A stretch of DNA of 64,000 bases, from the NCBI GenBank assembly GCA_927910745.1, contig CAKMNX010000028.1, positions 11,653 to 75,652 of the forward strand, written 5' to 3'. The position numbers and the translations under genes were made by a program. The DNA is from an uncultured Candidatus Saccharibacteria bacterium. Lineage in GTDB: Bacteria; Patescibacteriota; Saccharimonadia; Saccharimonadales; Saccharimonadaceae. Shown one piece after another: positions 35,100-53,448 of the stretch (the stretch's first letter is position 1; each line of letters opens with the position of its first letter). The notes beneath the pieces were generated by a model that was given only the letters and a program-made list of their open reading frames with translations, did not search any database and had not been told where the DNA came from.

Positions 35100-37067
35100 A
35101 TGAAACGATGGGGATTGAGCGTCGTGCTGCTATGCGGTGCACTCTATGGGCTCGCGATAGCTCCGCCAGTGCGGGCGAATACGTCGCTGTGTGGTACAAA
35201 TGATCAGCTGTTCAGAGCGGTGCGTCGGCCACTAGCGACTGACTCAGCACCAGCAGCGCGTGCGATGGCATGGCTCAAACAGATGATGGAGCCAAAGCAT
35301 AGCCCAGGTGATGGTAGTACCATCACGCCAGCACAAGCCTATGGCTTTGACTACCAAGCAAAGGTGAGCGGGCGCTTTACGCTTGCGCACCCACGACAAA
35401 CAGAAAGTGCGACACCGCTCACGGTTCCTAATACTGCGCATGCCGCCGAAGGTTACCGCGGCATAGTAAAAGGAACAGCACCAACTGGGGCTAATCCACG
35501 TGAAGTGCGGGCCTATCTCTACAGTGATGCTGAATATGAGCAAGCGACCGTTGCGCCAGCAGTGGTACAGCCAGATGGCACATGGACGCTCGATCTCTCA
35601 CCTGTCAATCCGGCATTTGCGGGGTCATGGCACTTCCGGTTATATGACAAAGTGACGGGGCAGCAGATTGGCGAGAGCTGGCCGCGACCTGTTACGTATA
35701 AGAATCTGGAGGTGCAGCTCTACGCGGTATCTGATAAAGAATATCTCCAAGCCACGCAGCCAGCCCAGGCAGATAATACCTTTAGTTTCGATGCAGTAGG
35801 TAAGGGGCATAAATTAATTCGCCTCTATGATACAGCAACTAAAACTATCATTGCTGAGTATTTCAAGCCAGAGCTGGTGGGGCTGATTCGCTCGTATGAG
35901 TATGCGCCAGGCCAAGATGGCTATGGTACACCGCGTGAGTCGTACAGCTATGTGTATGATCAGTCGCTGGCGCTACTCGTGGCGATTGGTGCGGATGATC
36001 GAACAATGGCGGATAAGCTCGTGCATGGCCTAAGCGCAATCCAAGTCAAGATAGGTGAGCAGAAGGGGGCGTTTCCGGCAAGTGCACATCAGCTTGATTA
36101 TACAGTAATCCAGCAGCCGATTTATTATACTGGTGGTATCGCCTTCGTGCAGTATGCGCTCATCCGCTATATGGAAAAATATGGTGACCAGCAAGGGGTG
36201 CGCCAGATGATTCTCGATACCTTCCGTTGGCTTGAGACAATGAAGACGACGACTGGCGATGCTGCCGGGTTATTCCGTGGCGGGGTGAAGATTGATAATG
36301 GCGTCAAGAAGGATATTGCATGGCATGCCACCGAGCACAACACTGACATGTGGCATGTGTACGAGCGAGCAGCCCGCGTGCTGGGTGATAAGCAGTATGC
36401 CCAGAAGGCAGACGAACTTGCCAAAGTGACAGTAGCGAAACTATGGAATACCTCTGAAGGGCGCTTTAACCAAGGGTATAACGACAGTAGTAAGGCGCTC
36501 GATACAACAAGCTGGGGTGCGATTTTCCTCAATGCGATTGGTGAATACGACAAAGCTAAGCAAGCACTCGCTCATACTGCCATCTACAAAACAACCGATG
36601 GTGCGGCAAAAGGCTATACACCGTATTTGACAGGTAATTACGTGCCAACCGTATGGTTTGAAGGGACGTATGGTGTAGCACAGGCGCATACTATCGCTGG
36701 GGACACGGCCACAGCACGGGCGATCTTGGCAGACACGTACCCAGCGCAGCGGCCCAATGGTGCATGGCAGTACGCGTCTAAGGCCGATCTGCTAAATGAA
36801 CTAACTAATGCAAACTCAGTGGCATCGACAGCGTGGTATATGTTGGCGGCTAGCTACCCAGAAGCGATTTGGTCGGAGTGCCGCGCGGCACTGGCGACAA
36901 ATCCACTCGATCCAAATAAACCCAACCAGCCCACTCAGCTAGCCAAGCCAAGCCAATTCCACGGCCTCTTAGCCGATACCGGCATATCGCTCTGGCAGTT
37001 TGTTCTTGTGACAGCGGCGTTGCTTGCTGGTGGGGTGCTACTGGCGCACTATGTGCGACGCGCATAA
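35100..37067 (+). CDS. secreted cell-wall-anchored protein with LAXTG-type sorting signal (LADTG), possible glycoside-hydrolase-like alpha/alpha barrel
   Basis: RBS ggagggg and a signal peptide. The C-terminus reads LADTG, then a hydrophobic helix, then RRA. That is a class E sortase-type sorting signal. Confidence 0.55.
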   Translation: MKRWGLSVVLLCGALYGLAIAPPVRANTSLCGTNDQLFRAVRRPLATDSAPAARAMAWLKQMMEPKHSPGDGSTITPAQAYGFDYQAKVSGRFTLAHPRQTESATPLTVPNTAHAAEGYRGIVKGTAPTGANPREVRAYLYSDAEYEQATVAPAVVQPDGTWTLDLSPVNPAFAGSWHFRLYDKVTGQQIGESWPRPVTYKNLEVQLYAVSDKEYLQATQPAQADNTFSFDAVGKGHKLIRLYDTATKTIIAEYFKPELVGLIRSYEYAPGQDGYGTPRESYSYVYDQSLALLVAIGADDRTMADKLVHGLSAIQVKIGEQKGAFPASAHQLDYTVIQQPIYYTGGIAFVQYALIRYMEKYGDQQGVRQMILDTFRWLETMKTTTGDAAGLFRGGVKIDNGVKKDIAWHATEHNTDMWHVYERAARVLGDKQYAQKADELAKVTVAKLWNTSEGRFNQGYNDSSKALDTTSWGAIFLNAIGEYDKAKQALAHTAIYKTTDGAAKGYTPYLTGNYVPTVWFEGTYGVAQAHTIAGDTATARAILADTYPAQRPNGAWQYASKADLLNELTNANSVASTAWYMLAASYPEAIWSECRAALATNPLDPNKPNQPTQLAKPSQFHGLLADTGISLWQFVLVTAALLAGGVLLAHYVRRA

Positions 37068-38559: not shown

Positions 38560-39189
38560 TCATTGGCTCTGTACCTTATCCACCAGCTTCGTTAGCTTCA
38601 CGCCATCGTACATCCAGTGGTCGGCGCCGCGGTATGCGCCGGAGTTGTTGACTTCGCCGCGCTGGGTGTAGATCAGGCGGGTGAGGGCAGATAGACGCCA
38701 GGTTTTGCCGCCGTAGGATGCTTCGCGTGGGCCGGCTACAACGGCGGTGATAGCTGGGTCTTTGATGAAGCAGATGGTTGCGCCCTTTTCGATACCTTTT
38801 TTGTAAAAGCTAAAGCGCTGGTCTTGCTGGTGCGCGGTGGTAACGGCCTCGAACGAATCGGCTTTGCTGGTGGATTGAGCTGGCTTGGGGTAAATCTGCG
38901 TGCCATCAAGGGCGAGCAGCAGCCGCTGGATAAGATATTCATCGAGCGCAAAGAATTCGCTCCGGCCAATGCGGTGTTTGCTAAAGACTTCGTGCAGAAG
39001 CTGCTCCTTTTTGTGGTAATTATCTACCTCAATAGCAACCAGCCGCTGCAGCCCAGTAATATTAGAATAGCCGTTGGATTCGAGGTATTGCATACGCGCC
39101 TCGAAGCGGTCGGTGCTGGTCTTGCCAATCTTGACCAAGCCATCAATGGCACTGGTCATAACATAAATCACTCCGCGTGGCTCGGACAT
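38560..39189 (-). CDS. T5orf172 (GIY-YIG-like) + DUF4357 domain protein
   Basis: [20 protein letters not shown]...RMQYL is the T5orf172/MUG113 signature. It is followed by the conserved C-terminal domain usually paired with it near R-M loci. Confidence 0.5.
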
Positions 39190-39290
39190 GGTTTTATTGT
39201 AGCAGACTGTGGGGTGGGGGAACAACCGACGACGATAAGGTGCTCAAACCAGCCTCGTTAATCAGGCTTGCTTGCAGTATAATGAGGGGC

Positions 39291-40876
39291 ATGACAACAG
39301 GGGATAATCGTAAAGAACAAGAACGCAGCAAGCTTCACAATACTATTTGGAAGATTGCCAATGACCTGCGCGGATCAGTCGACGGCTGGGACTTTAAGTC
39401 GTATGTGCTAGGCTTCTTATTTTACCGGTTTATATCGGAAAATCTAGTCAATTATATTAATGCTGAAGAGCGTAAAACTGGTGTGGCTGATTTTAATTAT
39501 GCTGAACTGAGCGATGATCAGGCGGAGTTTGGTCGTGAGGATACAGTAAACGACAAAGGATTTTATATTTTACCAAGCGAGCTGTTTGAGAATGTCCGTA
39601 AGCGCGCCAAAAATGACGAAAATTTGAACGAAACACTCAGTAAAATATTCCGTAACATTGAGCAATCAGCCAAAGGTTTTGAGAGTGAGGATGATTTTCG
39701 CGGGTTGTTTGACGACTTGGACGTTAATAGCAATAAACTTGGTCCGACCGTCGCCAGGCGCAATGAGCGATTAGTGAAATTGATGAACGCCATTAGTGAA
39801 TTAGAGCTCGGTAAGTTTGAGGACAATACGATTGACGCTTTTGGCGACGCATATGAGTATCTGATGACCATGTATGCCGGTAATGCTGGCAAATCCGGAG
39901 GTGAGTTCTTCACGCCGCAAGAAGTGAGCGAACTTTTGGCAAAAATTACTGTTGTTGGCAAAACCTCGGTAAACAAAGTGTATGACCCGGCAGCAGGCTC
40001 CGGTTCATTGCTGCTAAAATTTGCGAAAGTCTTGGGCAAGGATAATGTCAGGCAAGGCTTTTACGGGCAAGAGATTAACATCACAACCTATAATCTTTGC
40101 CGTATCAACATGTTCCTGCATGACATTAATTATGAAAAATTTAACATTGCTCACGGCGATACGCTGAAGGATCCGAAGCACTGGGATGATGAGCCGTTTG
40201 ATGCGATTGTCTCAAATCCGCCATATAGTATCAATGGGACGGCGATAGCAACCCGATGCTCATTAACGATCCGCGCTTCAGCCCGGCTGGAGTATTGGCG
40301 CCGCGCAGTAAGGCTGATTTAGCATTCACAATGCATATGTTGAGCTGGCTCAGCGAGAGCGGTACGGCAGCGATTGTTGAATTTCCTGGTGCACTATATC
40401 GCGGTGGGGCTGAGGTAAAAATTCGCAAATACCTGGTAGATAGTAATTATGTTGATACCGTCATCCAATTGCCGCCAGATTTGTTCTTTGGTACGACAAT
40501 TAGCACCTGTATTCTTGTTTTGAAAAAGAGCAGGGCGATGAACGATATATTATTTATCGATGCCAGCGCTGAGTTTGTGCGAAAAGGCAATAAGAACAAG
40601 TTGAGCGAGGAAAATCGTCAGAAGATCCTGGACAGTTTCACTGATCGGCAAAATATCGACTACTTTGCGAAAGTTGCTACTTATGAAGATGTCGCCGCCA
40701 ATGACTACAACCTATCAGTTAGTTTGTATGTTGAGGCGGAAGATACACAAGAAGTAATTGATATCACTGAGCTCAATGCTGACATTGCAAAGATCGTAGC
40801 TCGCCAGTCGGAACTACGGACGGAAATTGACGCTATAGTTGCAGATCTCGAAAAGGATAATAATAGTGCAAGATAA
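39291..40876 (+). pseudogene. hsdM: type I R-M DNA methyltransferase subunit HsdM, interrupted by a 1-nt deletion at about 40233-40236
   Basis: HsdM N-terminal domain, AdoMet motif ([10 protein letters not shown]) and NPPYS motif. After NPPYS the frame fails. Inserting one base restores [23 protein letters not shown]..., which continues as ORF 40256-40876. Confidence 0.8.
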
Positions 40877-41213
40877 CGGTAATATCGTTGTATATGCTGA
40901 CGATAACGGCAAGCCGCAAGTTGATGTTCGGTTTCAGGATGAGACGGTTTGGCTGACGCAAGCGCAACTGGTTGAGTTATATCAGTCGAGTAAAGCTAAC
41001 GTTAGCGAGCATATAAAAAATATCTTTGACGAGGGTGAACTTGACCGCGCAGCAACTATCCGGAAATTCCGAACAGTTCGAACTGAGGGTGATCGTCAGG
41101 TAGAACGTGAATTAGAATACTATAATCTCGACACTTGCAAACTGAGTACCAAGCAGGCTAAAGAAAAAATGCTAGCTGGGTATCGTAAGTATAAGGCGAA
41201 AAAACTTGAGTAG
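40866..41213 (+). CDS. RhuM-family (COG3943) protein, N-terminal fragment only
   Basis: GTG start overlaps the hsdM stop. IVVYADDNGKPQVDVRFQDETVWLTQAQLVELYQSSKANVSEHIKNIFDEGEL matches the RhuM N-terminus. The ORF stops after 115 aa, so it is truncated. Confidence 0.55.
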   Translation: MQDNGNIVVYADDNGKPQVDVRFQDETVWLTQAQLVELYQSSKANVSEHIKNIFDEGELDRAATIRKFRTVRTEGDRQVERELEYYNLDTCKLSTKQAKEKMLAGYRKYKAKKLE

Positions 41214-41276
41214 CGTGGAAGAGGATTATCTGGAGAATATTAAGAAAACAGCTAAAAAGTTGAAAGGTAAAATAAA

Positions 41277-43507
41277 ATGAGTATTCAGAAAGTAAAAATT
41301 AATTTTGAGCATTGTTATGGCATTCATAAGCTATGCAGCAACTTTGACTTTTCTAAATCTAATATGCAGCTAATTTATGCTCCGAACGGCACTATGAAAA
41401 CGTCTTTTGCAAAAACTTTTAAGGATATGAGTGATCCTAGAGGAAAAACTAAACCTCACGATCAGCTCAATGAAACTTTGCAGCCGACTTGCAAAGTTAT
41501 GGTTGAAGACGACAGCGGAAGTGAGCGACAGATAACACCTGATGAAATTAAGGTCATTAAGTCTTACGATGAATCTGCGTTCAAGTCAGAAGAGGCCATC
41601 CTCACCCTACTAGCTAACAAAGAGATTCGCCAACAATATGTTGATATTTTTAAAGAATTAGACAATGAGAAAAAATCTGCATTAAGTCCCTTAAAAAAGA
41701 TCACTGGCAGTAGTAATTACGAGCAAGAGATAATTGGTGCTTTTTCTGATCCAGGAACCAAAAAACTTTCGATATTTGAAGTTTTGGCTACCATAGTAGA
41801 CGACGTAAAACAGTCAAATAGTACCTTTGATTTTGTTTATAATCATGTATTTGATCCTAAGGGGAAAGTGCGTGACTTTCTAGATGAAAATTATGACTTG
41901 TTGCAAAAATATAGTGAGAAATATAATGAACTGTTATCAAGCTCGCAATTCTTTTCAAACAACGGAGAGCGAGCTTTTGGTACGATTGAAGCAGGCGCTC
42001 TTCGTGATTCAATAAAAGGCGATGAATATTTCGAGTCGGGTCATAAACTCTCGTTAAAGATGAGACTATGGTTGACAGCGCCGATAAACTGTCTGAGATT
42101 ATCGATGATGAGATTAAAAAAGTTTTTGATAATCAAGAAATTAAAGATACTTTTGACAAGATTGACAAGAAGCTACAAGGAAACCAAGAGCTAAGAAATT
42201 TTAAAAAAGTTATAGAGAAAGATAAAACTCTGATTGCCAAACTGACTAATTATAATGAGTTTCGTAAGGAAGTTTGGTATAGCTTTCTAAAACAAGTCGA
42301 GCCTGGGGTCAGTGGTTTAGTTGAAAACTATAATACGAAAAAGCCAGATATTGAGACGATTGTGGCTGCGGCGAATGGCTCTAAGGGCTTGTGGCACGAT
42401 ACTGTAAAAGAGTTTATGACTCGATTTACAGGCTTACCTTTTTCTTTTGGTATTGAAAACATAGGTGATGCTATTTTAGGCAAAGATATGCCGACTATTA
42501 CATACCGTTACGGCAATAAATTAGTAGACCAAAGCGTGCTAACAAAAGACATTCTAAGTCAGGGAGAGCGACGTGCTTTCTATCTATTGAATGTAATATT
42601 TGACATAAAATCACGAGAAAAAGAAAATAAAGAAACTCTATTTATTATAGATGACATTGCCGACTCGTTTGACTATAAGAACAAGTACGCTATTATTCAG
42701 TACTTAAACGACTTAAACAAGAGCGAAAATTTCAAAAGCATTGTTTTAACTCATAATTTTGATTTTTACCGTACACTACAAGAGCGAATACTAGCAAGCG
42801 GTAAACGGGATTATTCGTTTATAGCAGAAAGAAATAATGACGAGATTAGATTATTGCCGGGCGGGAAGAAGGTGATTACCAACCCTTTTAATAAATGGCG
42901 TAATAAATGTAATAGGAAAGAAAAGCTACTTGTTGCCGCCATACCGTTCATACGCGAGCTATATAACTATCAAAAAGGGAATGAATCGCAAGAATATTTA
43001 TTGCTAACACACCTACTTCATGACAAAGAAGCTGACAGTCAAAATAAGATACCAGCTACCTATGATATAAAACTAAGAGATATTGAGTATGTCTTTGATG
43101 GTATGTTGAATGTGCAGTTTAAGTTTCCGAATAAGACTAAAAAAGTTATAGACATTATTTTTAGTGTTGCCGATCAGATCCAGCAAGATCCTCATGACGG
43201 CATAAGCCTAGAGAATAAGATAGTATTGGCTATGGCGACTCGACTCTTGGCAGAGCAAAAAATCCTTATTTATGTAGAGCGTCCGTCAAACATTAGCAAA
43301 AACCAATTCTGGGAATTATACAATGTGTTTCGGAATCAATTTGGAAGTGATGAAACTAAAAAAGGCATATTAGAGGTTCTAGAACAGGTCAATATCATCA
43401 CTCCGGCAAATATCCACATTAATTCATTTATGTACGAGCCAATTATTGACATTGGTATTGATGAGTTAGTTTGTCTATATGATCGAGTAAAGGCTTTGCA
43501 TGAGTAA
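41277..43507 (+). pseudogene. ABC/SMC-like P-loop ATPase (AAA_13/AAA_15-like) embedded in the R-M locus, with an apparent 1-nt frameshift at 42056-42058
   Basis: Walker A (IYAPNGTMKTSF), ABC signature (LSQGERRAF), Walker B (LFIIDDIADSFD) and H-loop (VLTHNF). Two overlapping ORFs are in adjacent frames. A4 in place of A3 would join them. Confidence 0.6.
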
Positions 43508-44649
43508 AATTGACGATTTGATTAAAGAGCTGTGCCCGGATGGGGTGAGGTTTGTTAGAGTTGGCGACGTGGCTGTAATAGGTACAGGCAGATCTGATAG
43601 AAAGGATGCCGTTGAAAATGGCCAATATCCATTTTATGTAAGATCAAAAGTAGTATCTCGAATAGATAGGTACTCATTTGATGAGGAAGCAATTATTATA
43701 CCTGGAGAAGGTGGAGTTGGTGATATATTTCATTATGCGAATGGAAAATATGACCTTCATCAGCGAGCTTATAGAATTGTATTCATAACCAATGAAGTGA
43801 ATACGAAATACGCTCTGTACTATTTTATGAGTCTCTTTAAGAGTTTTATAACCCGAAAAGCGGTGAATGCAACGGTTACATCCATAAGAAAACCAATGAT
43901 AGAGGATTTCCGCATCCCCGTTCCACCTCTTGAGGTTCAAAAAGAGATTGTGCGTGTGCTAGACTCGTTTACAGAGCTAGAAGCAGAGCTAGAAGCAGAG
44001 CTAGAAGCGAGAAAGAAGCAGTACGAATACTATCGTAATGACTTGTTGACATTTGACGATGATGTAATGTGGAGGTCGATGGGTGAGATATGTATTTTTC
44101 AAGGATAGAGTAGCGTCTGATGAGCTTACTGCAGATAATTATGTAGGTGTTGACAATCTTCTTAAAGACAAAAAAGGTAGGACGATATCAAGTTATGTGC
44201 CAGAGTCAGGAATCTGGACAAAATTTGTATCAGGGGATATTCTCATTGGAAACATAAGACCATATTTGCGTAAGATATGGTTGGCGGATATTGAAGGTGG
44301 CACAAATGGTGACGTCTTAGTGTTCCATATTTCAAAAGAATATACGAAAAGAATAACACCTAAATTTCTTTTTCATTGCTTAAGTTCAGAAAGGTTCTTT
44401 ATGTTTATGAATAACACCTCAAGGGGCGCAAAGATGCCTCGCGGAGATAAGAAAGCTATCTTAAACTTTATGATACCGATTCCATCACTATCCGTACAAC
44501 AGCAAACCGTCTCTATCCTTGACAAATTCGAAAAACTTACCAACGATATTTCTGTTGGTTTGCCGGCGGAGATTGAAGCCCGCCGCAAGCAATACGAGTA
44601 TTACCGCAATAAATTACTAACCTTCAAAGAGTTGGAGTGTTCAAAATGA
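43500..44649 (+). pseudogene. hsdS: type I R-M specificity subunit HsdS (two target-recognition domains), frames offset by 1 nt at the T5 run 44095-44099
   Basis: Each half carries a TRD plus a conserved helical spacer ending RKKQYEYYRN(D/K)LLTF. The first ORF already runs into the start of TRD2 (W...GEICIF) before it stops. This argues for one gene with a frameshift rather than two half-genes. Confidence 0.65.
43974..44009 (+). repeat. 3 x 12-bp perfect tandem repeat (gagctagaagca) encoding ELEA x3 in the hsdS central conserved spacer
   Basis: Read directly from the sequence. Confidence 0.9.
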
Positions 44650-47600
44650 AATATGATGTAATTGCTGAAAATAGCGACAGCACCGTCGTCAGTGACTATG
44701 TCTCGCCTTACCAACGGGCGACGAGTTATCAGAGCGAGGCAGAACTAGAGCAGGAATTAATTAAGCAATTGCAGGCGCAGGCGTATGAATATTTGCCGAT
44801 CAAGAGTGAGAGTGATTTAATACGGAATCTGCGCACGCAGTTGGAGAAGCTGAATAATTACACATTTACCGATGCTGAGTGGAAGCGGTTCTTCGCAGAG
44901 CGGATCGCTAATGGCAATGAAGATATTGCTGACAAGACCTTCAAGATTCAGGAAGACAGTACGCAACTATTGCAACGCGATAACGGCGAGGTGATTAATA
45001 TTCGCCTGCTAGATAAAACAAACATTCACAAGAACTGCTTGCAGGTGATCAATCAATACGAGGTGTCGGGTACGCGGGATAACCGTTACGACGTGACGCT
45101 GCTGGTGAATGGTTTGCCGCTGGTGCATATCGAGCTAAAAAGGCGCGGCGTGCCTTTGCAAGAAGCCTTCAATCAGATCAATCGCTATCAGCGGGATAGT
45201 TTTTGGGCGGGTAGCGGGTTGTTTGAACATGTGCAGCTGTTTGTGATTAGTAATGGCACGCATACAAAATACTACAGTAATACGACGCGCTGGCAGCATA
45301 TCAATGAGGCGGGTAAATCAGATTCGCATCGCAGTAAAAAGACCAGCAATAGCTTTGAGTTTACCAGTTGGTGGGCGGATGCTAATAATCGCCCGATTAC
45401 CGATTTGATAGATTTTACGGCGACATTTTTATCTAAGCATACGCTGTTGAATGTGCTGACGAAGTACTGCGTGTTTACCAGCGATAAATTATTGCTGGTG
45501 ATGCGCCCATACCAAATTGTGGCGACTGAGCGTATTTTGAATCGCATCCAGATCGCCACAAATTACAAAAAGCTCGGTACAACTGAGGCTGGCGGTTATG
45601 TGTGGCACACCACAGGTAGCGGTAAGACGTTGACGAGTTTTAAGACGGCACAGCTGGCGAGTAAACTGGACTATATTGATAAGGTGCTTTTCGTGGTTGA
45701 CCGCAAAGACCTCGATTACCAGACGATGAAAGAGTACGATAAGTTTCAGGAGGGTGCAGCGAATAGCAATACCAGTACGCGGGTTCTGACGAGGCAATTG
45801 GGCGATCCAAACGCTAAAATTATCATTACGACCATCCAGAAGCTAGATACATTTATCAAGCGCAATCAAGGACACAAGGCGTTTGATGATCACATAGTTA
45901 TTATCTTTGATGAGTGCCACCGTTCGCAATTTGGCGATATGCATCATGCTATTACCAAAAGTTTTCGTAATTATCATTTGTTTGGCTTTACTGGCACGCC
46001 GATATTTGCTGACAATGCGTCAAGTGGTGGGCGAGTTGATCTACGAACCACCGAGCAGGCGTTTGGTGATAAACTGCATACCTACACCATAGTTGATGCG
46101 ATTACTGACAAGAATGTGTTGCCGTTTCGGATTGACTATATTCGTACGATTCGCGAGGCGGACGAGGTCGATGATCAACAGAAAGTACGAGATATTGATC
46201 GTGAGCAGGCATTGAATGCTCCAGAGCGCATTCGCAATGTTGTGCAATATACCCGTGACCACTTTGACCAAAAGACGATGCGTCATGCTAAATCTTATGC
46301 ATTTACGCGGCTGATGAATGTTCATGAAGTTGCGTCAGCGCGAAATAGAGCGGCGGAAGAGATAAAAGATAAAATTCGGCTGAGCGGATTTAATTCAATT
46401 TTTGCAGTGAGTTCAATTGATACAGCAAAACTTTATTATAACGAGTTTAAACGTCAGCAGGCTGAGCTTCCTGAAGTTAAACGCCTGAAAATCGCTACAA
46501 TTTATAGCTATGGAGCGAACGATCCTGATCTGGAAATGGATGGTATGGATGATGAGAATTCGGAAAATACCGACGGACTAGACATCTCGTCACGTGATTT
46601 TCTGGAGGGCGTAATTCGTGATTATAATGTAACATTTGGCACGAACTATGATGCCAGCTCCGAGCGATTCCAGAATTACTATAAAGACGTGAGTCTGCGG
46701 ATGAAGAATCGAGAGATTGATTTGTTAATCGTGGTGAATATGTTTTTGACAGGGTTTGATGCCACGACGTTGAATACGCTGTGGGTTGATAAAAACTTGC
46801 GGATGCACGGGCTGATTCAGGCGTATTCGCGGACGAATCGTATCCTTAATTCAATTAAAACCTATGGAAATATCGTGACATTTCGTAATTTGGAGAAGGC
46901 GACTAACAAAGCTTTAGCACTCTTTGGCGACAGAGATGCGAAGGGTGTTGTATTGCTGCGGCCTTTCCGGGACTATTATGAGGGCTATGAGGATGCTGGC
47001 AAGAAAACGCCGGGTTATGTTGATTTGATCGCGGAGCTAAAAGATAAATTTCCAGTGGGCGAGATAATTACTGGTGAGCAAGAACAAAAGGAATTTGTGA
47101 AGCTATATGGTGCAATTCTGAGGCTGAAGAATATTCTGTCTAGCTTCGATGAGTTTATTGGCCAAGAGATTTTGAGCCAGCGAGATGTGCAAGATTATCA
47201 CAGCATGTACATTGACCTCTATAATGAACTGCGACCGAAATCTGATGAGAGTAAGGAGAATATCAATGACGATTTGGTGTTTGAGATGGAACTCATCAAG
47301 CAGGTTGAAATAAATATTGATTACATCCTGGAATTGATTCGGCAGTATCATGATAGCCATTTGAATAATAAAGAGATTTTAGTCGATATTGATAAAGCCG
47401 TTAACTCATCTATGGAACTGCGTAATAAAAAGGATTTGATTGAGCAGTTTATCGCCTCACTCACGGTTGATAGCTCAGTATATGGTGACTGGAAGGAGTT
47501 TGTGAAGTCAAGAAAAATCAAAGAGCTAGATCAGATTATTGATGATGAAAAACTAGATAAAAATGCGACATATAGGTTTGTTGAAAATGCTTTTCGCGAC

Positions 47601-47759
47601 GGATATATACAATCAACCGGCACAGGTCTATCGCGGATACTGCCACCAATGTCGCGTTTTGCGCCTAGTGGAGAGCGTAGCAAAAAACGTGAAACAGTGC
47701 TGGAAAAATTGAGAGATTTCTTTGATCGATTCTTTGATGTCTCGAATGAAAGCTTATAG
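44646..47759 (+). CDS. hsdR: type I restriction enzyme R subunit HsdR (intact)
   Basis: N-terminal nuclease region, DEAD-box helicase motifs (TGSGKT, DECHRS) and a C-terminal helical domain. The start overlaps the hsdS stop. Confidence 0.9.
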   Translation: MKYDVIAENSDSTVVSDYVSPYQRATSYQSEAELEQELIKQLQAQAYEYLPIKSESDLIRNLRTQLEKLNNYTFTDAEWKRFFAERIANGNEDIADKTFKIQEDSTQLLQRDNGEVINIRLLDKTNIHKNCLQVINQYEVSGTRDNRYDVTLLVNGLPLVHIELKRRGVPLQEAFNQINRYQRDSFWAGSGLFEHVQLFVISNGTHTKYYSNTTRWQHINEAGKSDSHRSKKTSNSFEFTSWWADANNRPITDLIDFTATFLSKHTLLNVLTKYCVFTSDKLLLVMRPYQIVATERILNRIQIATNYKKLGTTEAGGYVWHTTGSGKTLTSFKTAQLASKLDYIDKVLFVVDRKDLDYQTMKEYDKFQEGAANSNTSTRVLTRQLGDPNAKIIITTIQKLDTFIKRNQGHKAFDDHIVIIFDECHRSQFGDMHHAITKSFRNYHLFGFTGTPIFADNASSGGRVDLRTTEQAFGDKLHTYTIVDAITDKNVLPFRIDYIRTIREADEVDDQQKVRDIDREQALNAPERIRNVVQYTRDHFDQKTMRHAKSYAFTRLMNVHEVASARNRAAEEIKDKIRLSGFNSIFAVSSIDTAKLYYNEFKRQQAELPEVKRLKIATIYSYGANDPDLEMDGMDDENSENTDGLDISSRDFLEGVIRDYNVTFGTNYDASSERFQNYYKDVSLRMKNREIDLLIVVNMFLTGFDATTLNTLWVDKNLRMHGLIQAYSRTNRILNSIKTYGNIVTFRNLEKATNKALALFGDRDAKGVVLLRPFRDYYEGYEDAGKKTPGYVDLIAELKDKFPVGEIITGEQEQKEFVKLYGAILRLKNILSSFDEFIGQEILSQRDVQDYHSMYIDLYNELRPKSDESKENINDDLVFEMELIKQVEINIDYILELIRQYHDSHLNNKEILVDIDKAVNSSMELRNKKDLIEQFIASLTVDSSVYGDWKEFVKSRKIKELDQIIDDEKLDKNATYRFVENAFRDGYIQSTGTGLSRILPPMSRFAPSGERSKKRETVLEKLRDFFDRFFDVSNESL

Positions 47760-50397: not shown

Positions 50398-53300
50398 ATG
50401 AATACCGTCACCACTTTCATTATTGTTTTTGGCTCGGCTGGCCTTATTCTGATCATCTTGTTTGTTGCCTTCATCGTCTATCGCAACAGTATGCGCGAGG
50501 CTAAGAACTACGAGCGAGGCCTTAAGATGGTGCCGATTCTCATCCACTTGCCACCTGCTAGTGATGATATCGACGGTGGGGGGCGTGACAAGCGTGACCT
50601 CACGGAGGAGGTGCTATCGCAGGCCCAAGTGATGTACAACATCATTGCGAGTACCAGCACCAAGGGCTTTATGAGCCGGATCTATGGGCAGCGCCATGTG
50701 TCATTTGAGATTGTGGCGCGCGAGGGTCTGGTGTATTACTATGCAGTGGTGCCAACAGTGCTGACGGACACAGTGCGCCAGGCAATTGCTGCAGCTTACC
50801 CATCGGCACGGCTCGAGGAGGTGTCGGAGCACTCGGTATTTAGTAAGGTAGGCAAGGCGAGTGGGACGATTGGTGGTGAGTTTACTCTGCGCAAAGAATT
50901 TATTTATCCGATTTCTACCTATATGGAGTCTAAGCGCGATGCGTCGCGGGCGCTGCTCAATGCAGTATCTTCGGCTGGGCGCGAGGATGGGGTGGGAATC
51001 CAATTTTTGATCCGCCCAGCGTATGAGAAATGGACGAAGCGCTCTATCTCGGCTGCCGAGCAGATCGTCAAGAACAAGGGTGAGAAAAAGAGTAGTGGCG
51101 GTAGTGGCCTCTCGGCGCGTGATGTTATGCAGGCACTATGGAAGCCGCCTGAGGCAAGTGACAAGAAGGAATTCCAAGCCGAGAAGCCGCTCAGTGCGGT
51201 GGAGCAGGCTAAAGTTGATGCTATCCAAGAGAAAATTCGCTACCCCGGCTATGAGGTAATGATCCGCGTGGTGGTGTCGTCCAACACGGCGGCGCGCTCA
51301 CAGGTGCTGCTCAAGAATATTGTGGCGGCGTTTGCACTGTTTGATTCGCCGAGCTTTAATGGCTTTAAGTTTAACCTTACTAAGAATGTCGATGAGCTCG
51401 CGACAGCCTTTATCTTCCGATTCTTCCCGCAGGCAAATAGCCGCGATATTCTCAACTCAGTAGAGCTTGCAACCCTCTTCCATTTGCCAGACCAAAATAG
51501 CATTCCTACCTCGCAAGTCAAGCGCCAAATGAGCAAGCAAGTCGATGGCCCAACAGAGGTGATGGAGACGGGGCTATTGCTTGGCTACAATGAGTTCCGT
51601 GGCGTGCGCAAGCCGATTCGCCTGGCTGATAAAGACCGTCGGCGTCACATCCATATCATTGGTCAGACGGGTGTAGGTAAGTCGGTCTTGCAAGAGAACT
51701 TGGCCTACCAGGATATGCTGGCGGGGCGGGGTTTTGCCTTGGTCGATCCGCACGGTGACTTAGCTGAGGCATTGCTCGCCAAGGTACCACGTGATCGGGT
51801 GGAGGATATTGTCTACTTCGACCCAGGTGATATGAGCAACCCGATTGGTCTTAATATGTTTGAGTTCGATCACCCCGACCAAAAGGACTTCTTGGTGCAG
51901 GAGGCGATCAACATGCTGTATGGCTTGTATGACCCAGGCCACACCGGTATCGTTGGGCCACGCCTCGAGCACATCTTCCGTAACTGTGCGTTGCTGCTGA
52001 TGGCTGATCCTGCAGGCGGGACGTTTGTCGACGTACCAAAGCTGCTGGTGGATGAGCAATTTCGTAATGCTAAGCTCAAATACGTGACGGACCGGCAGGT
52101 GCTCGACTTTTGGACGAAGGAGTTCCCAGCCTCGCAGCGCTCTAATGAAGCCGGTGACTTGATTAGCTGGGTGATCTCCAAGTTTGGTCCATTTATTAGC
52201 AACGATGCAATGCGCAATATTATTGGCCAGACTAAGAGTGGCTTCAACTTCCCCGAGATTATGAATAACAACAAGATTTTGCTCGTCAACCTCTCTAAAG
52301 GTAAGATGGGTGATCTCAACTCGAAGCTGCTTGGTATCATCTTCGTCATGAAATTCCAGGCGGCTGCCATGGCTCGGGCCAATATCCCCGAGCACGAGCG
52401 CAAGGACTTCACACTCTACGTTGACGAGTTCCAGAACTTTGCCACCGATAGCTTCGAGACAATCCTCAGTGAGGCGCGTAAGTATCGCTTGAGTTTGGTC
52501 TTGGCCAACCAGTTTATGACACAACTCAAGGAAGAACTGCGCGAGGCGATCCTTGGTAACGTTGGTACAACCATTACCGGCCGAATTGGTACGACTGATG
52601 CTGAGATCATGGTTAAGCGCTATACCCCTGTCTTTACTGCTGAGGACTTGACCAAACTGCCAAACTTCGAGTCCGTCTGTGTGGCGCAGATTAATGGCAC
52701 ACCATCGGCACCATTTAGCATGGCGTGGATTCCGCCAATGGGCGAGCCAAACCAGCAATTGAGCGGTGCTCTCAAGAAACTCTCGGCCGCGAAGTACGGC
52801 CGGCCACGCGACCAAGTGGAGCGCGATATAGCTGCCCGTATTAGTGTGCAACAGCCCAGTCAGCCAGCAGCCGGAGCGGGGCGCCCAGGGGGTGCAGCCG
52901 GAGCTGGCGGTGGGTCGTCCTTCCTGGATGAATGGCTTGCCAAGCGTAAACAGATGAATGCAAAGAAACCGCAATCGGCGGCAGCACCATCGAGCGCGCC
53001 AGCCTCACGGCCCGGTAGCCCGGCTGCTCAACCAGCTCGGCCACAAACTGCACCGGCTTCAGCGCAGCCATTGCGTGCCCAACCAGCCACGCCGCCAGCT
53101 TCTTCGCCCTCTCAGGCGCCACGGCCACAGCCAGCTAGCGCTCCTCGCACTATGCCAAATCCAAGCACGTCATCTCCATCGTCGGCTCAGCCTACTCCAC
53201 CACCGTCACCAGCGGTGCAAGATGCGCTTGATAGAGCACGTCATGCTGCGCGGCCCAATATCCTTGGTGGCCAGCCGGCCGAGGCACGTGCTCAGTCTAC

Positions 53301-53448
53301 TCCACCAGTCGCACCATCACCCGCTCCCGAGCCAGCTATGCCATCGCCAGAAGAGCTAGAGCGTGAAGCTCTGCGTCGCCAAGGCACTCTCAACACCCAT
53401 GGTGACCTGAGCGGCGAGCCACAGGAAGTGTCGATTAAGCTGCATTGA
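50398..53448 (+). CDS. membrane-anchored FtsK/HerA/VirB4-VirD4 superfamily P-loop ATPase (T4SS/conjugation-type)
   Basis: N-terminal TM helix. Walker A HIHIIGQTGVGKS. Walker B LYVDEFQNF. RKYRLSLVLANQFMTQL. A Pro/Ala/Ser-rich tail of about 200 aa follows. Confidence 0.6.
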   Translation: MNTVTTFIIVFGSAGLILIILFVAFIVYRNSMREAKNYERGLKMVPILIHLPPASDDIDGGGRDKRDLTEEVLSQAQVMYNIIASTSTKGFMSRIYGQRHVSFEIVAREGLVYYYAVVPTVLTDTVRQAIAAAYPSARLEEVSEHSVFSKVGKASGTIGGEFTLRKEFIYPISTYMESKRDASRALLNAVSSAGREDGVGIQFLIRPAYEKWTKRSISAAEQIVKNKGEKKSSGGSGLSARDVMQALWKPPEASDKKEFQAEKPLSAVEQAKVDAIQEKIRYPGYEVMIRVVVSSNTAARSQVLLKNIVAAFALFDSPSFNGFKFNLTKNVDELATAFIFRFFPQANSRDILNSVELATLFHLPDQNSIPTSQVKRQMSKQVDGPTEVMETGLLLGYNEFRGVRKPIRLADKDRRRHIHIIGQTGVGKSVLQENLAYQDMLAGRGFALVDPHGDLAEALLAKVPRDRVEDIVYFDPGDMSNPIGLNMFEFDHPDQKDFLVQEAINMLYGLYDPGHTGIVGPRLEHIFRNCALLLMADPAGGTFVDVPKLLVDEQFRNAKLKYVTDRQVLDFWTKEFPASQRSNEAGDLISWVISKFGPFISNDAMRNIIGQTKSGFNFPEIMNNNKILLVNLSKGKMGDLNSKLLGIIFVMKFQAAAMARANIPEHERKDFTLYVDEFQNFATDSFETILSEARKYRLSLVLANQFMTQLKEELREAILGNVGTTITGRIGTTDAEIMVKRYTPVFTAEDLTKLPNFESVCVAQINGTPSAPFSMAWIPPMGEPNQQLSGALKKLSAAKYGRPRDQVERDIAARISVQQPSQPAAGAGRPGGAAGAGGGSSFLDEWLAKRKQMNAKKPQSAAAPSSAPASRPGSPAAQPARPQTAPASAQPLRAQPATPPASSPSQAPRPQPASAPRTMPNPSTSSPSSAQPTPPPSPAVQDALDRARHAARPNILGGQPAEARAQSTPPVAPSPAPEPAMPSPEELEREALRRQGTLNTHGDLSGEPQEVSIKLH

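Follow-up and report, generated by a model that had tools for sequence, protein, structure and literature searches.

The described systems closest to the gene analyzed here are the anticodon nucleases PrrC and RloC, in which an ABC ATPase is combined with a C-terminal nuclease domain. The restriction-modification (R-M) system EcoprrI silences PrrC, and in RloC the protein's own ATPase and insert act as the brake. The nuclease domains of both proteins are classed as HEPN domains, and PrrC-like genes occur in loci that combine R-M and RhuM genes; HEPN families with variant motifs exist, and a HEPN domain that lacks Rx4-6H can be a binder with no catalytic activity (PMC3710099). The catalytic triad of the anticodon nucleases has the form R-x3-E...H, and the pattern published for RloC is R-x3-E-x36-52-H (PMC2610378). 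A set of 145 "phage defence candidates" (PDC systems) has been collected by 'guilt by embedding', the criterion being a location of the gene inside a BREX, DISARM or type I R-M locus (Payne et al., bioRxiv 10.1101/2024.01.29.577857). Here we analyze a gene in a stretch of 64,000 nucleotides (nt), the window, from an uncultured Candidatus Saccharibacteria bacterium (contig CAKMNX010000028.1, positions 11,653 to 75,652). The gene lies at 41277-43507 of the window and encodes, if intact, an ABC ATPase of the PDC-S46 family with 743 amino acids (aa) and a predicted HEPN-like C-terminal domain. The family was already catalogued as the candidate PDC-S46; what is new is its placement, based on profile alignments, as a putative remote and enlarged relative of PrrC. 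On balance we consider it probable that the protein works alone as an RNase of the PrrC/RloC type, gated by its ATPase, and would serve as an abortive-infection backstop. All coordinates are positions in the window, and features are on the plus strand unless stated otherwise.

In the window the gene is split into two overlapping open reading frames (ORFs), 41277-42194 (305 aa) and 42068-43507 (479 aa), which upon joining give one continuous protein of 742/743 aa. This repaired protein is identical in 740 of 743 positions to an intact 743-aa homologue (P0001), which is encoded on human-oral metagenome contigs from JGI and ENA. These results bear out the coordinates and the continuous reading frame given in a first-pass annotation of the DNA. 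The two halves of the repaired protein matched the PADLOC model PDC-S46 (PDLC05023, profile length 719) with E values of 2.1e-60 (profile positions 2-247) and 8.3e-155 (positions 251-718). By this end-to-end match the protein is a PDC-S46 member, with no difference from the family. The first-pass annotation had called it uncharacterised; this is correct with respect to function, since PDC-S46 is a candidate to which no mechanism has been assigned, but the family as such is already catalogued. The name PDC-S46 was not found in the searchable papers and their supplements.

An AlphaFold2 model computed from a 141-sequence alignment (pLDDT 93.5, pTM 0.85) divides the protein into an ABC head (residues 1-100 and 385-528), a helical insert of about 280 aa that splits the head (residues ~105-385; 41589-42430) and an all-alpha C-terminal domain of about 215 aa (residues 529-743; 42860-43504). 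The first-pass annotation had assigned residues 420-743, about 330 aa, to an extra domain; in the model, residues 420-528 are still part of the ABC head, and the domain is restricted to residues ~530-743. The best structural neighbours of this C-domain are HEPN RNases, with weak scores, and we predict that it has a HEPN-like fold and acts as a nuclease.

Residue conservation was counted in an alignment of 345 family members. Arg560, His582 and His714 occur in every aligned sequence (345/345 for Arg560 and His582); the invariant residues of the C-domain include Arg, His, Glu, Asp and Lys, and about ten polar ones are kept across phyla. Arg560 opens the motif R560-E561-L-Y-N564-Y565 (42953-42970), which reads mostly RNLIEY in the relatives and would contain the catalytic Arg and acid. 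Positions 561 and 564 are occupied by Asn/Glu in 236 sequences, by Glu/Asn in 41 and by Asn/Asp in 30. The acid is found at +4 from Arg560 when Asn is at +1 (266/281) and at +1 when the residue at +4 is non-acidic (60/61); the window protein, which reads RELYN, has its acid at +1. Because the acid swaps between these two positions, the alignment argues that an acid next to Arg560 is required. A candidate for the catalytic His is His582 (43019-43021) in the motif LTxLLHxK. A second polar cluster extends from K648 to R656-x3-E660 (KIVLAMATRLLAE; 43217-43255), with K648 and R656 present in 344 sequences each and E660 in 339. Finally, the stretch TPANIHINSFMYEPIID (T709-D725; 43400-43450) includes the invariant residues H714, N716, E721 and D725, and H714 is the other candidate for the catalytic His.

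The relationship between the family and PrrC was analyzed by profile-profile alignment with hhalign. As PrrC reference we used an orthologue from a Vibrio campbellii plasmid (NZ_CP050477.1; PADLOC PrrC model, E 2e-136), which led to the PrrC alignment A5. Residues 484-581 of the family aligned with PrrC residues 234-331 (E 2.8e-6, probability 88%); the match extends from the H-loop through IPFvRNLiEYt, which comes to lie opposite HFtllRNLYEKTa of PrrC. Co-linear with it is a match between residues 21-61, which include the P-loop, and PrrC residues 10-47 with YAFNGxGKT (E 2e-4). Arg560 is thereby placed opposite the Arg, and position 564 opposite the Glu, of the invariant RNLYE in PrrC. We take RNLYE to hold the catalytic Arg320 and Glu324 of PrrC, going by the published triad (PMC2610378) and the spacing in alignment A5 and not by the E. 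coli sequence. At the level of profiles, remote homology to PrrC extends over the ATPase and the C-domain's first helix. The first-pass annotation had seen no recognisable nuclease motif in the C-terminal part and had proposed a novel effector domain. Both views have to be revised: residues 560-564 (RELYN; mostly RNLIE in the family) align with RNLYE, and the domain appears HEPN-like in structure, with a PrrC-type Arg/acid motif in its first helix.

Other searches returned less of this relationship. The PADLOC PrrC model matched only residues 15-55 (E 1.2e-4). The Pfam family AAA_13, to which PrrC and RloC belong, gave no match to the window protein at E values up to 10, and one of ten relatives passed its threshold. 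One family member is labelled in UniRef as a 'CR006 P-loop domain' protein. The block YYNAFTEDLFYWDNDL, presumably the 'PrrC Box', is invariant in alignment A5 between Walker A and the signature; it found no aligned counterpart in the family with hhalign. The V. campbellii PrrC locus (L087, 1544-10123) shows the textbook order hsdM-hsdS-prrC-hsdR. It is located directly after a DUF6088 gene and a gene of the AbiEii/AbiGii toxin family, and an antirestriction gene is near. In the nuclease domain of this PrrC (encoded at 5836-7014 of L087), residues 279-361 match the PADLOC model ApeA (E 9e-8); the window family has no such match.

The two separate invariant polar clusters of the C-domain, R560/H582/K584 and K648/R656/E660/H714/N716/E721/D725, could also belong to an enzyme that is catalytic without being an RNase, for example an ATPase-gated DNase or a nucleotide-degrading enzyme. 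The pair E721/D725 could bind a metal, and the canonical HEPN motif is absent. However, the fold comparison yields HEPN RNases, the protein with co-linear homology, PrrC, is a tRNase, and profile searches gave no match to DNase, NADase or similar families. We therefore regard a non-RNase activity as improbable.

The ATPase motifs of the head are conserved throughout the 345 relatives. In the ABC signature LSQGER (residues 427-432; 42554-42571), S428 is found in 343 sequences, G430 in 341 and E431 in all. The Walker B motif and the D-loop (TLFIIDDIADSFD, residues 454-466; 42635-42673) have D459 in 344 sequences and D460 and D466 in all 345, and the same holds for H493 and N494 of the H-loop LTHN (residues 491-494; 42746-42757). 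Family-wide, the LSxGE signature, the hhhhDD Walker B, the SFD D-loop and the THN H-loop are invariant or nearly so. The P-loop is unusual: A35-S43 (APNGTMKTS; 41379-41405) carries Met40 at the Gly position of Walker A. In the wider motif YAPNGTMKTS, Met precedes the Lys in 340 of the sequences, K41 is present in 344 and T/S42 is kept; the family P-loop APNGxMKTS does not match the canonical Walker A, GxxxxGK[ST]. Of the four motifs that the first-pass annotation had listed as present, signature, Walker B and H-loop are confirmed by the relatives, while Walker A turns out to be non-canonical.

A Foldseek comparison of the model gave the best matches to Rad50 and SMC heads (E 4e-7 to 2e-4); the retron Ec83 ATPase and AriA were also matched. 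As modelled, the head has an SMC/Rad50-like ABC ATPase fold. The insert consists of 15 helices with 4-29 residues each. No long coiled coil and no hinge are present in the model, and a CxxC zinc hook is absent from the sequence, as the first-pass annotation had stated. A search of the PDB with the whole protein or with the whole-family profile resulted in nothing beyond a weak match to SMC4 in the signature region; sequence matches of the protein to RecF and SMC_N are also weak.

These matches of the head raise the question of whether the protein is an SMC/Rad50/RecF-like DNA-binding ATPase that senses or holds DNA, with the C-domain as a non-catalytic adaptor for Hsd or other partners. The whole-protein structural matches fit such a role, as do the weak RecF and SMC_N matches, and HEPN domains without Rx4-6H can be non-catalytic binders (PMC3710099). 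An architecture without long coiled coil, hinge or zinc hook speaks against it, and there is no conserved partner of the Mre11/SbcD or kleisin type. Furthermore, the invariance of about ten polar C-domain residues across phyla would be uncommon in an adaptor, the Arg/acid motif pairs with RNLYE of PrrC, and the gene occurs in changing surroundings that include defence islands and plasmids. We judge the adaptor function to be unlikely, and a role in DNA repair of the RecF/RecN/SbcC kind is ranked low.

The comparison with the known systems shows both likeness and difference. As in PrrC, an ABC ATPase domain precedes an all-alpha domain, here a predicted nuclease; both P-loops have the context IYAxNGxxKT, the part from the H-loop to RNL(Y/I)E is co-linear in the profiles, and the gene of the window lies within a type IC-like hsd operon together with a RhuM-like ORF; an association with RhuM is also described for PrrC-like genes (PMC3710099). 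However, the window protein has 743 aa and PrrC about 390; the former carries the helical insert of 280 aa and, past the His582 region, about 160 additional residues. The P-loop has Met in place of Gly, and a counterpart to YYNAFTEDLFYWDNDL is missing. The gene is located between hsdM and hsdS, whereas prrC is located between hsdS and hsdR, and most members of the family have no linkage to R-M at all. With RloC the protein shares the large ABC ATPase, an insert in the head and a (predicted) C-terminal nuclease; both genes are mostly solitary and only sometimes linked to R-M. The spacing R656-x3-E660-x53-H714 is one residue beyond the published RloC pattern R-x3-E-x36-52-H (PMC2610378), and all three residues are conserved. 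In contrast to RloC, the protein has neither the CxxC zinc hook nor the long coiled coil, no RloC match is among its PADLOC hits, and the profile alignment puts the PrrC-type Arg/Glu at R560 and not at R656. All of this is consistent with the first-pass annotation, which had set the protein apart from both a plain PrrC and a classic RloC.

With the HEPN RNases (HEPN toxins, Las1, Csm6, Cas13, RnlA/LsoA and ApeA) the C-domain shares an all-alpha bundle. They are its closest structural neighbours, at weak scores, and common features are the polar residue after the conserved Arg (R-N) and the occurrence in defence and R-M contexts. It differs from them in having Tyr or Phe at the position of the His in Rx4H (His in 8/345) and in being about twice as large as a minimal HEPN domain, and it is not matched by the HEPN models of Pfam. 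AriA of the PARIS system, the retron Ec83 ATPase, GajA and OLD likewise have an ABC head with varied inserts, which acts as a nuclease-gating sensor; in these systems the effector is Toprim, HNH or a separate protein, whereas here a predicted HEPN-like effector is fused to the head and there is no conserved partner.

The family is large and widespread. It comprises 1678 cluster representatives (50% identity clusters, E ≤1e-3), or 658 at E 1e-30; nearly all of the listed representatives are 715-760 aa long and match over the full length. Relatives occur in at least 553 species from Patescibacteria, many Bacteroidota, Proteobacteria (including Acinetobacter, on plasmids, and Helicobacter pylori HUP-B14), Firmicutes, Marinitoga (Thermotogota) and one Micrarchaeota archaeon. 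The gene was also found on 27 plasmids and on one phage-labelled contig, where it is annotated as hypothetical, as 'AAA family ATPase' or as 'phage infection protein'. In about 13 of 80 species-level loci (~16%) it adjoins hsd genes, so that the R-M coupling proposed in the first-pass annotation is not a trait of the family. An all-against-all clustering of the neighbours from 81 loci identified no conserved partner gene; the commonest neighbour is hsdM with 12 loci. A two-gene system was considered and rejected on the same data, because no neighbour is universal. What lies directly beside the gene varies between loci, with many defence and mobile functions (ResIII, nSTAND3, Mrr, HpaII, RhuM, Abi_2, type III and IIG R-M, resolvases). 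Because hsd genes adjoin few of the loci and no neighbour is conserved, the family gene is a self-contained single-gene module that is at times embedded in R-M.

In favour of the interpretation as an ATPase-gated RNase are the invariance of polar residues, the absence of a partner gene and the alignment with PrrC. Several results weigh against this interpretation. Sequence searches with the C-domain gave no significant match in Pfam (60 members searched), in a profile search of the PDB or with the PADLOC models of PrrC and RloC; all 60 C-domains tested match PADLOC PDC-S46, and an NCBIfam search with the whole protein found nothing for this domain. The HEPN motif Rx4-6H is absent; position 565 is Tyr in 255, Phe in 79 and His in 8 of the 345 sequences. 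When the C-domain alone was aligned with PrrC by hhalign, the same RNLxE pairing was obtained with an E value of only 0.09. Neither H582 nor H714 was aligned with the catalytic His of PrrC in local or global hhalign; H582 is located 17 residues past position 564, and the PrrC His about 31 residues past its Glu. ATP binding may suffer from the Met in the P-loop. Finally, about 84% of the family loci do not adjoin R-M, and for the family as a whole the coupling may be incidental.

The mechanism that we propose for a nuclease of this type is as follows. In the resting cell the nuclease would be held off by the Hsd complex in embedded loci, or by its own ATPase and insert in solitary ones. A phage cue, such as an anti-restriction protein, DNA ends or damage, or a change in the nucleotide pool, would then alter the nucleotide state or the dimerisation of the heads; in embedded loci an anti-restriction protein may release the Hsd brake. 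Engagement of the heads would pair the C-domains and lead to a metal-free cutting of tRNA anticodon loops or of other RNA, which would stop translation and abort the infection. A role in defence or abortive infection is our best guess for the protein.

The unusual P-loop, the two polar sites and the insert can also be read jointly as the marks of a distinct enzyme class among ABC-HEPN proteins, a reading that we hold to be doubtful. The Met in the P-loop would then stand for unusual nucleotide sensing: the protein might bind ATP and barely hydrolyse it, or it might read a different nucleotide, in the way that PrrC responds to GTP and dTTP. The site with R560, the acid and H582 and the site with K648/R656/E660/H714/N716/E721/D725 might act together to make a double incision or to attack something other than tRNA. 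The insert of 280 aa could directly sense a phage protein, and this would account for the gene working alone in most genomes.

The broken reading frame of the window copy has to be considered before function is assigned to the gene in this organism. The intact 743-aa form, in an intact operon, is present in four near-identical metagenome contigs (L001-L004), which are 99.6-99.9% identical to the window across most of their length. A base-by-base comparison located the frameshift at 42056-42058, where the window reads AAA and L001-L004 read AAAA, meaning that one A is lost. Over the 17.8 kilobases (kb) compared with L001 the window has six one-nt indels, all in homopolymers, and three substitutions, an indel to substitution ratio of 2:1. 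Four of the indels are within the operon: hsdM and the ATPase gene each lack one A (at 40233 and 42056), and hsdS lacks a T at 44100 and an A at 44101. The other two are beyond it in one unrelated gene (33236 and 33274, +T each). Because the indels are confined to homopolymers, outnumber the substitutions two to one and also affect the unrelated gene, the break is most likely a homopolymer sequencing or assembly error. A true pseudogene, with the ATPase gene and the whole R-M operon decaying in this genome, would account for the frameshifts in each of hsdM, the ATPase gene and hsdS and for the RhuM gene that is already shortened. Such decay has little to recommend it in view of the short homopolymers in which all six indels fall, the two indels away from the operon, the immediate adjacency of two others (44100 and 44101) and the intact reading that is common to four independent assemblies. 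Programmed frameshifting or phase variation was rejected, as the run has only 3-4 A and the same type of indel occurs in unrelated genes. The ATPase gene is a real, conserved gene, which the organism itself probably carries in intact form. Relative to the four independent assemblies, every one-nt indel of the window falls in a homopolymer, and four genes are broken in this way; other split ORFs of the window are therefore suspect for the same artefact.

The gene is the third of five genes on one strand with overlapping stops and starts, in the order hsdM, RhuM N-terminal fragment, ATPase, hsdS and hsdR. This agrees with the position inside an R-M operon given in the first-pass annotation, and the operon is type I, EcoR124/type IC-like. 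hsdM (39291-40876; 528 aa if intact; Pfam HsdM_N and N6_Mtase) is split by the lost A at 40233. The RhuM-like ORF of 115 aa (40866-41213; PADLOC PDC-S05, E 3e-35) corresponds to about 90 N-terminal aa of RhuM-like proteins. In related loci this ORF has about 280-340 aa (L005, L006 and L012) or about 145 aa (L007), and PADLOC has several models of 80-110 aa for it. The ORF is either what a truncation has left of the gene or a small domain that stands alone. hsdS (43500-44649; 387 aa if intact) is split by the two losses at 44100-44101, and hsdR (44646-47759; 1037 aa) encodes an EcoR124_C-type C-terminus. The guanine-plus-cytosine content of the operon (39291-47759) is 40.8% and that of the ATPase gene 35.5%, compared to 50.1% for the window and 48.5-53.8% for 8-10-kb blocks elsewhere in the window. 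Because of this low value the operon looks horizontally acquired. The genomes nearest to the locus are those of oral Candidatus Saccharibacteria.

The specificity subunit varies between close strains. The central region of HsdS (~43950-43990, at 43972) contains three copies of an (A/T)ELE repeat, TELEAELEAELE, whereas L001-L004 have four; the sequences differ here by 12 nt, in frame. The number of HsdS repeats sets the length of the spacer in the recognition site of type IC enzymes, for example EcoR124I/II. Because the copy number differs, the window strain and the L001-L004 strains may have different recognition sequences. In the first target-recognition domain of hsdS (43736-43920) about 20 substitutions relative to L002 fall within 190 nt; outside this patch the 15.5 kb shared with L002 are almost identical. 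This clustering suggests that the specificity domain has recombined or diversified between strains. The region 38634-40168 covers a T5orf172 gene and the 5' end of hsdM; its identity to positions 1-1535 of L004 is only 91.5%, compared with 99.6% for the part downstream. The jump in identity implies, from the alignment, a recombination breakpoint within hsdM.

The T5orf172/MUG113-domain gene (38560-39225, minus strand) is divergent, lies directly upstream of hsdM and has the same position in L001 and L002. Further upstream a 655-aa ORF (35100-37067), which has no Pfam or NCBIfam match, is kept in L001, and downstream of the operon a DUF8128/TraG-D_C protein is encoded at 50398-53448. The region of the R-M operon may be a piece of an integrated mobile element.

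If the proposed function is correct, a very widespread gene that is usually annotated as 'hypothetical' would gain a mechanism, namely an RNA cleavage that is gated by an ATPase and related to that of PrrC. The analysis points to K41, M40, R560, E561/E564, H582 and H714 as candidate key residues, and the invariant Met of the P-loop is a minor biochemical peculiarity of interest by itself. The locus in the window is a natural R-M-embedded version of the gene and is suited to asking whether Hsd silences the nuclease as it does in the case of PrrC. For the oral Saccharibacteria, whose immunity is little studied, the finding would add a defence gene.

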